The notes: a model not told the origin generated them from the letters alone. A stretch of 64,000 nt of DNA from Escherichia coli (GCF_003018255.1 NZ_CP027440.1); one strand, 5' to 3'; counted from the stretch's first letter, positions 39,611-45,018 are shown. Numbers and translations are program-made.

Positions 39611-39697
39611 GTCGGATGCGACGCTGACGCGTCTTATCCGACCTACGGGGAGCGCATTTGTAGGCCGGATAAGGCGTTTACGCCGCATCCGGCACCG
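39611..39697. repeat. REP pair inside the phn operon (phnK-phnL spacer)
   Basis: GTCGGATGCGACGCTGACGCGTCTTATCCGACCTAC and GTAGGCCGGATAAGGCGTTTACGCCGCATCCGGCA in opposite orientation. Confidence 0.8.
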
Positions 39698-39699
39698 GC

Positions 39700-40458
39700 T
39701 CAATTCTGCAAAACCGATGACACCAGCAGTTGTGTATACGGATGGTGCGGGTCGTCGAGCACGCGGTCGGTTAACCCACTCTCCACCACTTTCCCTTGCT
39801 TCATTACCAGCAAACGGTCCGCCAGCAGACGGGCGACGCCTAAATCGTGGGTGACAATCACTACCGCCAGGTTAAGCTCCATCACCAGACCGCGGAGCAG
39901 GTCCAGCAGGCGCGCCTGTACCGACACATCCAGCCCGCCAGTGGGTTCATCCATAAACACCAGCTTCGGATGCGTCACCAGGTTGCGGGCAATCTGCAAA
40001 CGTTGCTGCATGCCGCCGGAAAAGGTGGTCGGCAGGTCGTCGATCCGGTTGGCGGGAATCTCCACCTCTTCCAGCCATTTCTGCGCGGTGGCGCGAATAT
40101 CGCCGTAATGACGCGCTCCGGTTGCCATCAACCGTTCGCCGATATTGCCGCCTGCCGACACCTGGCGGCGCAGGCCGTCAAGCGGATGCTGATGCACCAC
40201 ACCCCATTCGGTGCGCAGCAGGCGACGGCGGTCGGCCTCGCTCATCGCGTACAGCGAACGGTTCTCGTAGCGAATTTCCCCTTGCTGTGGTGTCAGGCGG
40301 GCGGAAATTGATTTCAGTAGCGTGGTCTTCCCGGAACCGGACTCCCCAACAATGCCCAGAACTTCTCCCGGCCATAAATCAAAAGAGACATCGCTAAAGC
40401 CTTTGCCCGGCGCGTAAAGGTGGGTCAGGTTATTGACCGAAAGTAACGGTTGATTCAT
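39700..40458 (-). CDS. phnK: C-P lyase ABC-ATPase-like subunit
   Basis: 252 codons from [11 protein letters not shown]; Walker [10 protein letters not shown]. Confidence 0.9.
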
Positions 40459-41300
40459 TGGTTTTTTGCCTCGCTCTGTTGGCGGCAATAATCGGTATCG
40501 GAGCAGACAAACATGCGGTTTCCGGCGTCATCCAGCACCACTTCATCAAGATAGCTGTGGGTCGATCCGCAGATGGCGCACGGCTCATTCCACTGCTGAA
40601 CGGTGAACGGGTGATCGTCGAAATCGAGGCTTTCCACGCGGGTAAACGGCGGCACCGCATAGATGCGCTTCTCGCGCCCCGCGCCGAACAGTTGCAGGGC
40701 GGGCATCATGTTCATTTTCGGGTTATCAAATTTCGGGATCGGCGACGGGTCCATTACGTAGCGCCCGTTTACCTTCACCGGATAGGCGTAGGTGGTGGCG
40801 ATATGACCGAAGCGGGCGATATCTTCATACAGCTTCACCTGCATCACGCCGTACTCCTCCAGCGCGTGCATGGTGCGGGTTTCCGTTTCGCGCGGCTCGA
40901 TAAAGCGCAGCGGTTCGGGGATCGGCACCTGGAAAATAATGATCTGATCTTCGGTCAGCGGCGTTTCGGGGATGCGGTGGCGCGTCTGGATAAGCGTCGC
41001 ATCGTCCGTACGTTCAGTGGTGTTTACCCCGGTCACGCGCTTAAAGAAGTTACGGATCGACACCGCGTTGGTGGTGTCGTCCGCGCCCTGGTCAATCACC
41101 TTCAGCACATCGCTTTCGCCAATCACGCTGGCGGTAAGCTGTATGCCGCCGGTTCCCCAGCCGTAGGGCATCGGCATCTCGCGCCCGCCAAACGGCACCT
41201 GATAACCGGGGATCGCCACCGCTTTTAAGATGGCGCGGCGGATCATGCGTTTGGTCTGCTCGTCGAGGTAGGCAAAGTTGTAGCCGCTCAGATTAGCCAT
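40455..41300 (-). CDS. phnJ: C-P lyase catalytic subunit (radical SAM-like)
   Basis: 281 codons from MANLSGYNF; C-terminal cysteine cluster CAICGS..CSDTDYC. Confidence 0.9.
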   Translation of the reverse strand: MANLSGYNFAYLDEQTKRMIRRAILKAVAIPGYQVPFGGREMPMPYGWGTGGIQLTASVIGESDVLKVIDQGADDTTNAVSIRNFFKRVTGVNTTERTDDATLIQTRHRIPETPLTEDQIIIFQVPIPEPLRFIEPRETETRTMHALEEYGVMQVKLYEDIARFGHIATTYAYPVKVNGRYVMDPSPIPKFDNPKMNMMPALQLFGAGREKRIYAVPPFTRVESLDFDDHPFTVQQWNEPCAICGSTHSYLDEVVLDDAGNRMFVCSDTDYCRQQSEAKNQ

Positions 41301-42357
41301 GGTTCTGCTCCTGTTGCAGACGTTTGAGTAGCTCCAGTTCGGCCTGGAAATCGACGTAGTGCGGGAGTTTAAGGTGCGAGACAAAGCCTGCGGCTTCGAC
41401 GTTGTCGGCATGCGCCAGCACGAACTCTTCATCCTGCGCCGGGCCTGTCGCGTGCTCGCCGTACTCCGGGGCTTGTAGAGCGCGGTCAACCAGCGCCATC
41501 GCCATCGCTTTGCGCTCGCTCATGCCGAACACCAGCCCGTAGCCGCGCGTGAAGTGCGGCGGCTCATCCGGCGGGTCGATAAAACCGTTGACCATTTCAC
41601 ATTCGGTCATCAGCAGTTCGCCGACGTTCACCGCAAATCCCAGCTCTTCCGGCACAATCGACACGTCGATATAGCCGCTGCGGATTTCGCCTGCGAACGG
41701 ATGATTGCGTCCGTAACCACGCTGGGTGGAGTAGGCCAGCGCCAGCAAATAGCCTTCGTCGCCGCGCATTAATTGTTGCAGGCGGGAGGAGCGTGAGCAG
41801 GGGTAAACCGGCGGCGTGCGGGTGATGTCGTCCGGCTGTGCGCCGCTATCTTCTTCAAACTTCGCCAGCCCCTGACGCGCCAGCAGGCTGAAAACGTGCG
41901 GCGACGGCTGTTGTTCGCTGTCGGCTGTGGTCAGCGTCGGCGCTTCGCCGTTTGCCAGCAGGGTGAAATCGAGCAGGCGATGGGTGTAGTCGTAGGTTGG
42001 GCCAAGCAGCTGGCCGCCGGGAATGTCTTTATAAACCGCCGAAATACGGCGTTCGAGCCGCATCTCCGTGGTGTCGAGCGGCTCGCTCACCGCCAGCTTT
42101 GCCAGCGTCGTGCGGTAGGCGCGCAACAGGAAAATCGCTTCAACGTTATCGCCGCTGGCCTGTTTCAGCGCCAGTGCCGCCAGCTCACGGTCGGCAATGC
42201 CGCCTTCGGTCATCACGCGATCTACCGCGAGGTTAAGCTGCTGTTCAATCTGGGCGACGCTCAGTTCGGGTAAATCGGTATCGCCCCGGCGTCGGCTCTC
42301 TTGCAGGGCGTGGGCGGCGTCGATCGCCTTCTCGCCCCCTTTCACGGCAACGTACAT
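41293..42357 (-). CDS. phnI: C-P lyase core complex subunit
   Basis: 354 codons from [13 protein letters not shown]. Confidence 0.9.
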   Translation of the reverse strand: MYVAVKGGEKAIDAAHALQESRRRGDTDLPELSVAQIEQQLNLAVDRVMTEGGIADRELAALALKQASGDNVEAIFLLRAYRTTLAKLAVSEPLDTTEMRLERRISAVYKDIPGGQLLGPTYDYTHRLLDFTLLANGEAPTLTTADSEQQPSPHVFSLLARQGLAKFEEDSGAQPDDITRTPPVYPCSRSSRLQQLMRGDEGYLLALAYSTQRGYGRNHPFAGEIRSGYIDVSIVPEELGFAVNVGELLMTECEMVNGFIDPPDEPPHFTRGYGLVFGMSERKAMAMALVDRALQAPEYGEHATGPAQDEEFVLAHADNVEAAGFVSHLKLPHYVDFQAELELLKRLQQEQNHG

Positions 42358-43390: not shown

Positions 43391-44116
43391 TCAGTGCTCC
43401 ATAGTGAATTCAATCATGTCGGCGCGCGTCAGGCTGACGGAGTACTCCGCCGGGCTGCTTTCACCGTCACGGTGGTTAAGGGTGCGCACGCACAGCAGCG
43501 GCGACATATTCGGGATTTCAAGACGCTGGCACTCTTTGGCCTGGGCGCGGCGGGCGCTGATCCGCGTCTGGCTGCGGCGCAGCGCAATCCCCGTTTGCTC
43601 GCGCAGAAAATCGTGCAGCGAGCCGCTGTCGAAGCGTTGCAGCGTCGGCCAGAGGGTGAGGTCCGCAAAGTAGTGGTCGATTAAACAGAGCGCGACGCCG
43701 TTGACCCGGCGCAGGGTGCGCAGGTGGATAACGTTCTCGCCCTCGGTTATCCCCAGCGCGTCAGCGACGTGACCGGAGGCCGGGCGCAGCACAGACAGCA
43801 GTTTTTCGCTGGTGGGATGGCTGCCCTGATCCAGCAGGTTCTGGCTAAAACGCGCCTGGGCGTTGAGCGGGTAATCGAACGGGCGCATCAGCACCAGCAC
43901 GCCGACGCCCTGACGGCGCTGTACCCAGCCTTTTTCCACCAGTTGGTCGATGGCGCGGCGCAGGGTGTGGCGGTTCACCTCAAAGCGCGCCGCCAGTTGC
44001 TGCTCGGCGGGAAGATAGTCGCCGCAGCGGTAGTGTTGACGAAGCTCCTGCTCAAGTTTTGCGGCTATCTCCTGATAGCGTGTTGGGTAGCTGGTCGGAT
44101 GTGTAGACAAGTGCAT
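43391..44116 (-). CDS. phnF: GntR-family repressor of the phn operon
   Basis: ~241-aa ORF with N-terminal HTH and UTRA-type C-terminus. Confidence 0.88.
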   Translation of the reverse strand: MHLSTHPTSYPTRYQEIAAKLEQELRQHYRCGDYLPAEQQLAARFEVNRHTLRRAIDQLVEKGWVQRRQGVGVLVLMRPFDYPLNAQARFSQNLLDQGSHPTSEKLLSVLRPASGHVADALGITEGENVIHLRTLRRVNGVALCLIDHYFADLTLWPTLQRFDSGSLHDFLREQTGIALRRSQTRISARRAQAKECQRLEIPNMSPLLCVRTLNHRDGESSPAEYSVSLTRADMIEFTMEH

Positions 44117-44136
44117 AGATATCAATGCCTCGCTTA

Positions 44137-44916
44137 TCAGATAAAGTGCTTACGCAACCGTTGAGAGAGGAAATCCAGCAGGCTGACCGTGACGATAATC
44201 AGCACCATCAGGGCGCAGGTTTGCTGGAACTGGAAACCGCGAATCGCTTCCCACAGGGTGACGCCGATCCCGCCCGCGCCGACCATGCCAACAACGGTGG
44301 CCGAACGGACGTTGGATTCGAAGCGATAGAGGGAGTAGGAGATCAGCAGCGGCATCACCTGCGGCAGCACGCCGTAGAGGATCTCTTCGAGCTTGTTGGC
44401 ACCAGTGGCGCGAATACCTTCCACCGGGCCGGGTTCAATTGCTTCTACCGCTTCGGAAAGCAGTTTGGAGAGCACGCCGGTGGTGTGGATAAACAGCGCC
44501 AGTACGCCAGCGAACGGACCGAGACCGACGGCGACCACGAACAGCATGGCGAAGACCATCTCGTTAATGGCGCGGCAGGCGTCCATCAGGCGGCGAACGG
44601 GCTGATACACCCACCACGGCACCAGGTTTTCAGCGCTCATCAGGCCGAAGGGGATGGAGAGAACGACTGCCAGCGCGGTGCCCCAGACGGCGATTTGCAG
44701 CGTGACGGCCATTTCGGTGAGGTAATCCTGCCATTGGCTGAAATCGGGCGGGAAGAAGTCGGCGGCGAAGGTTGCCATGTTGCCGCCGTCTTTGATCAGC
44801 GTAAGCGGGGCCATTTCCGCGCCCTGCCACGAGACGACCAACACGGCGAGAACAATGGCCCAGCTCAGAAGCGAGAACCAGCTGCGCTTGGGTGGGGCGA
44901 TGGTGATGGTTTGCAT
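44137..44916 (-). CDS. phnE: Phosphonate ABC transporter permease (intact allele)
   Basis: Single continuous ORF (259 aa from MQTITIAPP; 280 aa from an upstream in-frame start), with no frameshift. Confidence 0.85.
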
Positions 44917-44931
44917 GTTTGGCTCCGGTCT

Positions 44932-45018
44932 GTAGGCCGGATAAGGTGCTTGCACCGCATCCGGCATCAACGTCTGCACATTGTCGGATGCGACGCCGGG
45001 GCGTCTTATCCGACCTAC
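44932..45018. repeat. REP pair inside the phn operon (phnD-phnE spacer)
   Basis: GTAGGCCGGATAAGGTGCTTGCACCGCATCCGGCA and GTCGGATGCGACGCCGGGGCGTCTTATCCGACCTAC. Confidence 0.8.

Follow-up and report, generated by a model that had tools for sequence, protein, structure and literature searches.

The question raised by this locus is what palindromic repeats do when they stand between the genes of an operon. We analysed a 64,000-nucleotide (nt) stretch of Escherichia coli DNA (GCF_003018255.1, NZ_CP027440.1), called the window below, with positions counted from its first letter; it carries the 14-gene phn operon on its minus strand and, inside that operon, two pairs of repetitive extragenic palindromic (REP) units. 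As a preliminary description of the same DNA had stated, one pair lies between phnK and phnL (39611-39697) and the other between phnD and phnE (44932-45018); we find each of them to be made of two inverted units. We consider it likely that these REPs act inside the operon as local regulators of the kind known from 3' untranslated regions, stabilising the RNA upstream of them and attenuating what lies downstream. The evidence comes from the position of the elements, from the folding of their RNA, from the steps in RNA level that coincide with them in E. coli K-12, from precedents and from comparison with other genomes.

The genes were identified by mapping onto the window the Prokaryotic Genome Annotation Pipeline (PGAP) annotation of NZ_CP116067 (99.2% identical), the best match to an 11.1-kb stretch that spans the operon. 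All 14 phn translations have a single terminal stop and none internal; this includes phnE, which is an intact gene of 259 codons here (44137-44916) and a pseudogene, by frameshift, in MG1655. The 11.1-kb stretch is matched over at least 80% of its length in 5,385 of 5,426 complete E. coli genomes. In transcription order the junctions measure (in nt) +24 for C-D, +105 for D-E, +20 for E-F, 0 for F-G, -4 for G-H, -1 for H-I, -8 for I-J, -4 for J-K, +110 for K-L, -4 for L-M, -1 for M-N, -14 for N-O and +1 for O-P. Most of the other junctions had been said to overlap by 1-14 nt, and this is true of seven out of eleven; the further claim that the REP spacers are the only untranslated gaps is incorrect, since untranslated nucleotides also separate phnC from phnD (24 nt), phnE from phnF (20 nt) and phnO from phnP (1 nt); the two REP spacers are the only gaps in the operon longer than 24 nt. 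Concerning promoters, the pho box upstream of phnC is the sole match in the window (chance expectation 0.01), and near either REP spacer no sigma-70-like match was found on the minus strand, where the only matches are at 47120 and 46051.

It had been proposed that RNA sequencing under phosphate starvation should be inspected for changes in coverage at the two REP sites, and in gene-level counts from K-12 steps are indeed present at both. The counts are those of Fitzgerald et al. 2023 (PMC10294691, Table S1; ArrayExpress E-MTAB-9591) for MG1655 in low phosphate, normalised with DESeq2 and given for two replicates; they cover 13 of the 14 phn genes, phnE being absent, and were divided here by gene length. 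RNA per kb amounts to 41k for phnC and 140k for phnD, to 15k, 16k, 11k, 15k, 20k and 30k for phnF, phnG, phnH, phnI, phnJ and phnK, and to 3.6k, 7.0k, 9.9k, 5.8k and 2.2k for phnL, phnM, phnN, phnO and phnP. The two steepest drops in the operon are those from phnD to phnF (0.08 and 0.15x in the two replicates) and from phnK to phnL (0.11 and 0.13x), a fall of about eight-fold at each REP junction, the remaining ratios between neighbours ranging from 0.36x to 3.8x. The segment means are ~81-112k, 18k and 5.6k per kb, that is, three tiers of roughly 100:18:6. RNA also climbs toward each REP from the 5' side (phnC<phnD, and phnH<phnI<phnJ<phnK), as expected of decay intermediates protected at their 3' ends. 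The steps fall within one co-transcribed unit, with a single pho-box promoter upstream of phnC and with all the operon genes of Table S1 depending on PhoB.

The RNA steps at both junctions therefore fit the suggestion, already made in the preliminary description, that the transcript is segmented or stabilised at the REPs, with the reservation that this support is correlative and comes from K-12. The division into transporter, core lyase and accessory genes that had been attached to it does not follow the tiers. The middle segment includes, besides phnG-K, the gene of the permease (phnE) and that of the regulator (phnF), and phnL, the first gene of the supposedly accessory segment phnL-P, is no accessory gene, its product being a subunit of Phn(GHIJKL)2 without which the system does not work in vivo (PMC9947105).

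On the minus-strand transcript every unit, whether of the Y or of the Z type, folds into a local hairpin, with -20.0 kcal/mol for the Z unit and -19.8 for the Y unit of the phnD-phnE pair and -22.4 for the Y unit and -21.3 for the Z unit of the phnK-phnL pair; the two local hairpins sum to -41 to -45 kcal/mol per pair. As one long hairpin between units, the phnD-phnE pair reaches -50.6 to -53 kcal/mol (z = -3.75) and the phnK-phnL pair -61 to -63 kcal/mol (z = -7.4). Pairing begins 3-7 nt past the stop codons of phnD and phnK and ends 5-8 nt ahead of the GGAG of phnE and the GAGG of phnL. Intrinsic (Rho-independent) terminators were considered and rejected, neither hairpin being followed by a U-tract (the sequences directly after them are CCCGAACCACGAGG and AGACCGGAGCC) and none of 20 terminator-like matches falling in either spacer.

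According to the explanation that we favour, the hairpins would block 3'-to-5' exonucleases, and RNA ending at them (phnCD and phnF-K) would outlive the RNA downstream. They would also break translational coupling and attenuate readthrough, possibly with some help from Rho, and fewer transcripts would enter phnE-K and, after the second element, phnL-P. The outcome would be the mRNA staircase of three steps, with more PhnD, the periplasmic binding protein, than permease and with phnG-K ahead of phnL-P. The hairpin between phnD and phnE occupies a place at which nearly every phnCDE operon has a structured spacer. A causal role of the REPs in the steps, and the shares that stabilisation and termination would have in it, are what we infer from these data.

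An experimental precedent is REP325, between yjdM and yjdN. Harris et al. 2026 (bioRxiv 10.64898/2026.03.23.713779) deleted it, ran Northern blots and applied bicyclomycin, and showed that it makes the mRNA of the gene before it more stable and lowers expression of the gene after it about ten-fold, partly via Rho. The same authors found that tandem gene pairs with a REP between them have, genome-wide, a raised ratio of upstream to downstream RNA, with a median log-transformed value of 0.96 versus -0.09. The phn elements resemble REP325 in lying between tandem co-transcribed genes and in the size of the RNA steps; they differ from it in that REP325 has 12 units in K-12 and shows its partial Rho dependence only with the full array, whereas the phn sites have two units each. 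In the window the REP325 locus itself, from which 'naRNA4' comes, lies 2.5 kb upstream of phnC (47492-47569), between yjdN (46984-47427) and yjdM (47587-47922); in a spacer of 159 nt it has a single Z2+Y pair, which scores 96 bits against the Rfam model RF02564 (naRNA4). In MG1655 this spacer is 657 bp long and is described as containing 12 units, and the model array is thus strongly variable in copy number between strains.

Older precedents have a matching gene order. Newbury, Stern, Higgins and colleagues reportedly studied, in 1987-88, the intercistronic REPs of malE-malF in E. coli and of hisJ-hisQ in Salmonella by REP deletion and half-life measurements. In these systems a periplasmic binding-protein gene, REP hairpins and a permease gene follow each other, reportedly with the upstream message more abundant, which is the arrangement of phnD, REP and phnE; the evidence for phn comes from sequence and K-12 RNA levels. 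The mechanism of upstream-mRNA protection is summarised by Harris et al. 2026, with the operons unnamed.

Several points weigh against the regulatory explanation. The support from RNA sequencing is correlative at both phn sites, and the literature searched yielded neither a deletion of the REPs at these sites nor half-lives or mapped 3' ends for them; no paper linking REPs with phn genes turned up either. The strain sequenced was K-12 and not that of the window, and the frameshift in its phnE could itself produce Rho polarity between phnD and phnF, so that K-12 expression across this step may not fully transfer to the present strain, in which phnE is intact. Within the last segment phnL (3.6k per kb) lies below phnM (7.0k) and phnN (9.9k), contrary to a simple staircase; the PhoB-independent signal of phnN-P seen in a ΔphoB strain is far too weak to account for it, and possible reasons would be that the first cistron past the REP decays faster or that the transcript is processed internally. 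A second low-phosphate data set (PMC7657598) gives only fold changes with weak induction, and in it phnC and phnD alone are clearly PhoB-dependent, the downstream genes being too low; this pattern is compatible with polarity after phnD and is unusable as evidence. In the study of Harris et al. 2026, moreover, the effects of REPs were very variable, and genome-wide no longer half-lives went with terminal REPs. Fragments of 2-4 hairpins had no detectable Rho dependence there, and for the two-unit phn elements we therefore lean to an exonuclease barrier combined with loss of coupling, a contribution of Rho being possible. Finally, the phnK-phnL spacer measures only 7-10 nt in several Enterobacteriaceae, from which it follows that the element at this place is dispensable for the operon.

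The identity of the elements is not in doubt. Both pairs are 87 nt long, and a search of the window with a REP-core pattern returned 19 units, which form 5 clusters, while 30 shuffled sequences gave 0-1 units apiece, a result far beyond chance; ten units drawn from all five clusters align with a common core and a GTAG/CTAC foot. Ton-Hoang et al. 2012 (PMC3333891) define a REP, or palindromic unit (PU), by an imperfect palindrome 30-40 nt long and by a GTAG tetranucleotide that is conserved on the 5' side of its stem foot. The four phn units are 35-37 nt long and have GTAG or CTAC at 39643-46, 39660-63, 44932-35 and 45015-18; the RNA fold of each contains an internal loop between outer and inner stems, each pair is extragenic, with a stop codon on one side and the following ribosome-binding site (RBS) on the other, and the phnK-phnL sequence, used as a query, occurs in E. 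coli genomes at 27 places (median). Core sequence, GTAG foot and mismatched stem are those of the E. coli REPs and bacterial interspersed mosaic elements (BIMEs), and so are the inversion of Y against Z units, the short linker, the extragenic position and the high copy number. There is no essential difference; the foot of the phn Z units reads GTCGG...CCGAC, with a T-A pair replacing C-G. In the Y unit of the phnD-phnE pair the inner stem is altered on both sides (GGTG/CACC for GGCG/CGCC) and pairing is kept.

Concerning the class of BIME, BIME-2 consists of a REP and an inverted REP (Y+Z2) with a short linker, often as tandem copies; the phn loci have inverted Y+Z pairs with linkers of 13 and 15 nt, but a single pair each and no tandem array. 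BIME-1 (Y+Z1 with a long conserved L linker, often including an IHF site) was rejected, the two short linkers being also unlike each other. The Z core measures 28 nt in phn and 29 nt in the Z2 unit of REP325, so that Z1 and Z2 are both candidate subtypes. Both phn elements are ordinary E. coli REP/BIME repeats, BIME-2-like or atypical. The phnK-phnL spacer is 100% identical in the window and in MG1655, and the phnD-phnE spacer differs from that of MG1655 at one base, in the linker. The K-12 element between phnK and phnL, with its 3' foot at about 4,317,917 of MG1655, is presumably REP323; the RefSeq feature table of NC_000913.3 has no REP features. The phnD-phnE pair corresponds in position and in its 87-nt length to REP324, which Harris et al. 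2026 list in their supplement as 'Tandem' between phnD and phnE at MG1655 4323247-4323333. The REP pairs being already known and annotated in K-12, and their likely role being the classical one, finding them adds little in itself. The same supplement lists an in-vitro Rho-binding site from a NusG-plus screen at MG1655 4323405-4323494 on the plus strand, 72 nt from REP324, which corresponds to about 45090-45180 of the window and lies opposite the 3' end of phnD, on its antisense strand. The coordinates of all these features are reported in Table 1.

Table 1. Position of the phn operon, its REP pairs and the adjoining signals in the window (ORF, open reading frame)
Feature	Position	Strand	Basis and remarks
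phnCDEFGHIJKLMNOP operon, 14 intact ORFs	36038..46851	-	ORF list, mapped PGAP annotation and translations
phnL RBS GAGG (39596-39599) and ATG (39587-39589)	39587..39599	-	sequence, PGAP annotation
Z-type REP unit, phnK-phnL pair	39610..39646		sequence, core pattern, alignment
13-nt linker, phnK-phnL pair	39647..39659		sequence; GTAG/CTAC unit ends face each other
Y-type REP unit, phnK-phnL pair, first on mRNA	39660..39694		sequence, core pattern, alignment
phnK stop codon UGA	39700..39702	-	sequence, folds; first paired base of the Y hairpin 3 nt downstream
phnE RBS GGAG (44923-44926) and ATG (44914-44916)	44914..44926	-	sequence and PGAP start; 5-16 nt past the hairpin foot
Y-type REP unit, phnD-phnE pair	44932..44966		sequence, core pattern, alignment
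15-nt linker, phnD-phnE pair	44967..44981		non-GTAG unit ends face each other; 1 nt differs from MG1655
Z-type REP unit, phnD-phnE pair, first on mRNA	44982..45018		sequence, core pattern, alignment; read on mRNA as 5'-GTAGGTCGGATAAGACGCC...CATCCGACA
phnD stop codon UAA	45022..45024	-	sequence, folds; long pair hairpin begins 3 nt and local Z hairpin 7 nt downstream
pho box (PhoB site) upstream of phnC	46895..46912	-	2 mismatches to the MG1655 PhoB site ATTAACCAAATCGTCACA (PMC10294691 Table 1)

Within E. coli the two spacers are polymorphic. Between phnK and phnL the REP-pair allele is found in 4,840 genomes and a 176-nt allele with two copies of another G+C-rich palindrome in 546, together 5,386 and hence essentially all the genomes that bear the operon. 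Between phnD and phnE the REP pair occurs in 3,877 genomes, the other palindrome, in one copy or in two, in ~1,305 and a single copy in the opposite orientation in ~183, these alleles summing to ~99.5% of the 5,392 genomes with a match. The REPs are thus replaced in 10-28% of genomes, at 39590-39699 (phnK-phnL, 546 genomes) and 44917-45021 (phnD-phnE, ~1,490 genomes), by a repeat of the form CCCTCTCCC-N-GGGAGAGGG, and no empty allele was found at either spacer among ~5,390 E. coli genomes, the counts leaving no room for a common one. Every sampled allele folds strongly (-24 to -95 kcal/mol), including a variant locus (L008) in which the Z hairpin is shortened yet perfect. All that the alternative alleles have in common, at both spacers, is a stretch of 17-20 nt adjoining the start codon of the following gene, which for the phnK-phnL alleles means the 18 nt ahead of the phnL ATG. 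It was also considered whether the linker of the phnK-phnL REP pair contains a remnant of the other repeat, and this was rejected, local alignment showing only those last 18 nt, the RBS region, to be shared.

The alternative palindrome is a dispersed intergenic repeat, for which the median genome has 17 places and the richest 32. The BoxC family of E. coli is G+C-rich and palindromic, with a length of 56 bp and 32 copies (PMC2267715), and our repeat, being G+C-rich, palindromic, intergenic and dispersed with a copy number as published, is probably BoxC; the name is provisional, matched on copy number and G+C-rich palindromy and not on a consensus, and we call the repeat BoxC-like. It has no sequence relationship to REP. 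Two unrelated palindromic families alternating at the same spacers are compatible both with selection for any hairpin and with repeated colonisation of the sole permissive sites.

To look beyond E. coli, 80 loci from other species were fetched with PhnJ as the query and their phn genes mapped by tblastn; the z-scores for spacer folding come from 25 mononucleotide shuffles per spacer and are hence rough. The phnD-phnE spacer is at least 50 nt long in 47 of the 49 species in which the two genes are adjacent (median 68 nt) and is strongly structured, with a median of -0.42 kcal/mol per nt and z<-2 in 72% of cases, and the phnC-phnD spacers are unstructured (median z 0.11). Within the Enterobacteriaceae, the phnD-phnE slot holds one REP in two Citrobacter and in Cedecea, 1-4 copies of the G+C-rich palindrome in Pseudocitrobacter, Enterobacter, Leclercia and Kluyvera, and an unrelated hairpin in Hafnia. 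As read from these spacers, the hairpin predicted after phnD is a conserved feature of the operon supplied by interchangeable elements.

The phnK-phnL spacer behaves differently, having a median of 22 nt in 79 species. It is only 7-10 nt long ('TAA GAGGCGAAC ATG', where GAGGCGAAC is 9 nt) in Leclercia, Enterobacter sp., Citrobacter sp. FP75, Cedecea neteri, Hafnia and one metagenome-assembled genome, and contains species-specific REPs or the G+C-rich palindrome, in varying copy number, in other relatives; judging from this distribution, the phnK-phnL element is a sporadic, lineage-specific insertion. In the Pseudocitrobacter faecalis locus (L009, 14,843 nt), whose PhnJ is 98% identical to that of the window, both spacers contain four BoxC-like copies, and the RBS-proximal flanks are nearly identical to those of the E. 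coli BoxC-like alleles, a resemblance that suggests either a recent exchange of the phn region between Pseudocitrobacter and E. coli or a shared ancestral allele. Across the species (L009-L088) the phnE-phnF spacer has a median of 36 nt, with z<-2 in 44% of cases, and a structured phnE-phnF spacer may mark a boundary between phnCDE and phnF-P in many lineages.

These comparisons bear directly on whether the REPs are selfish or neutral passengers, non-autonomous elements spread by the REP-associated tyrosine transposase (RAYT/TnpA-REP) into the sole tolerant gaps of a tightly packed operon, with an effect on expression that is incidental and unselected. The near-empty phnK-phnL spacer of several relatives, its occupation elsewhere by species-specific REPs or BoxC-like copies, the polymorphism of both E. 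coli spacers for repeat family and copy number, and the single REP325 pair found here against the 12-unit spacer of MG1655 are what such a history would leave behind, and TnpA-REP cleaves and recombines BIMEs in vitro, BIME copy number being variable among strains (PMC3333891). We nevertheless regard passengers as an unlikely explanation, given that no empty allele appeared among the E. coli genomes and that a structured phnD-phnE spacer is near-universal, also in Pseudomonas, Vibrionaceae and alpha-proteobacteria, which lack E. coli-type REPs. Moreover, the RNA steps coincide with the elements, and even a passenger would then have a phenotype visible to selection.

A control at the level of translation has also to be weighed, in which ribosomes terminating at phnD and phnK would stall on the hairpins and cause mRNA cleavage, trans-translation and a lower yield of PhnD and PhnK. 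Liang, Rudd and Deutscher are said to have found in 2015 that a REP close to a stop codon stalls ribosomes, with a distance threshold of 15 nt, and by sequence and predicted folds the phn hairpins begin well inside such a distance, 3-7 nt past the stops. REP-induced stalling, mRNA cleavage and trans-translation are cited in PMC4513850, and the process is acknowledged as possible by Harris et al. 2026. Against this stand the RNA levels, phnD and phnK being the most abundant RNAs of their segments, and the consideration that PhnD, as a periplasmic binding protein, is expected in excess, so that lowering it seems counter-productive; no protein-level data were found. As the explanation of what the elements do it seems to us rather unlikely, and as a layer coexisting with stabilisation and attenuation, stalling of this kind is plausible from the spacing of stops and predicted hairpins.

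It is very improbable that the elements serve the DNA or the nucleoid instead of acting on phn mRNA, be it as gyrase or HU targets of the BIME type or as a source of naRNA4-like RNA organising the chromosome. PU-BIME elements of E. coli have been reported to interact with DNA gyrase and IHF (PMC2267715), yet the phn linkers are short and lack the long IHF-bearing L linker of BIME-1, and Harris et al. 2026 saw no effect of REP325/naRNA on nucleoid volume or compaction and no REP-REP contacts by Hi-C. RF02564 has a gathering score of 59.5 bits, which the phnD-phnE pair exceeds with 68.7 bits on the plus strand, antisense to the phn mRNA, in addition to the 96-bit match of the yjdM-yjdN pair; on the mRNA strand the phnD-phnE pair scores 51.8 bits. 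The phnK-phnL pair, with 42.8 and 36.4 bits, stays under that score. Since a REP pair underlies the model, a match to it shows likeness to a REP pair, not function. The reading of the phn elements as naRNA4 genes was rejected on these grounds, the best match being antisense to the operon and the nucleoid role not having been reproduced.

Returning to stabilisation and attenuation by the hairpins, one extension of this explanation can be put forward tentatively, although we find it somewhat doubtful: the phn spacers may be selected 'hairpin slots', in which selection would keep a strong RNA hairpin behind phnD (and, within E. coli, behind phnK too), whichever mobile palindrome supplies it, REP and BoxC-like repeats being interchangeable dimmers that set a three-tier stoichiometry. 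If so, the PhnD:PhnE and PhnK:PhnL ratios would be allele-specific and strains would differ in their use of phosphonate. Whatever its outcome, the phn operon offers a clean natural test case for the debate on whether REPs are stabilisers, terminators or passengers: it has one strongly inducible promoter, 14 genes and two REP junctions, each with an RNA step of about eight-fold, together with a naturally empty phnK-phnL spacer in close relatives and natural alleles with a REP pair or with one, two or four BoxC-like copies. In work on expression of the phn operon or of C-P (carbon-phosphorus) lyase, phnE-K and phnL-P should be expected to be under-represented relative to phnCD.

Two further REP arrays are present in the window, at 7163-7409 and 17874-18241, composed of 6 and 7 alternating Y and Z units respectively, the second with a regular period of ~113 nt.

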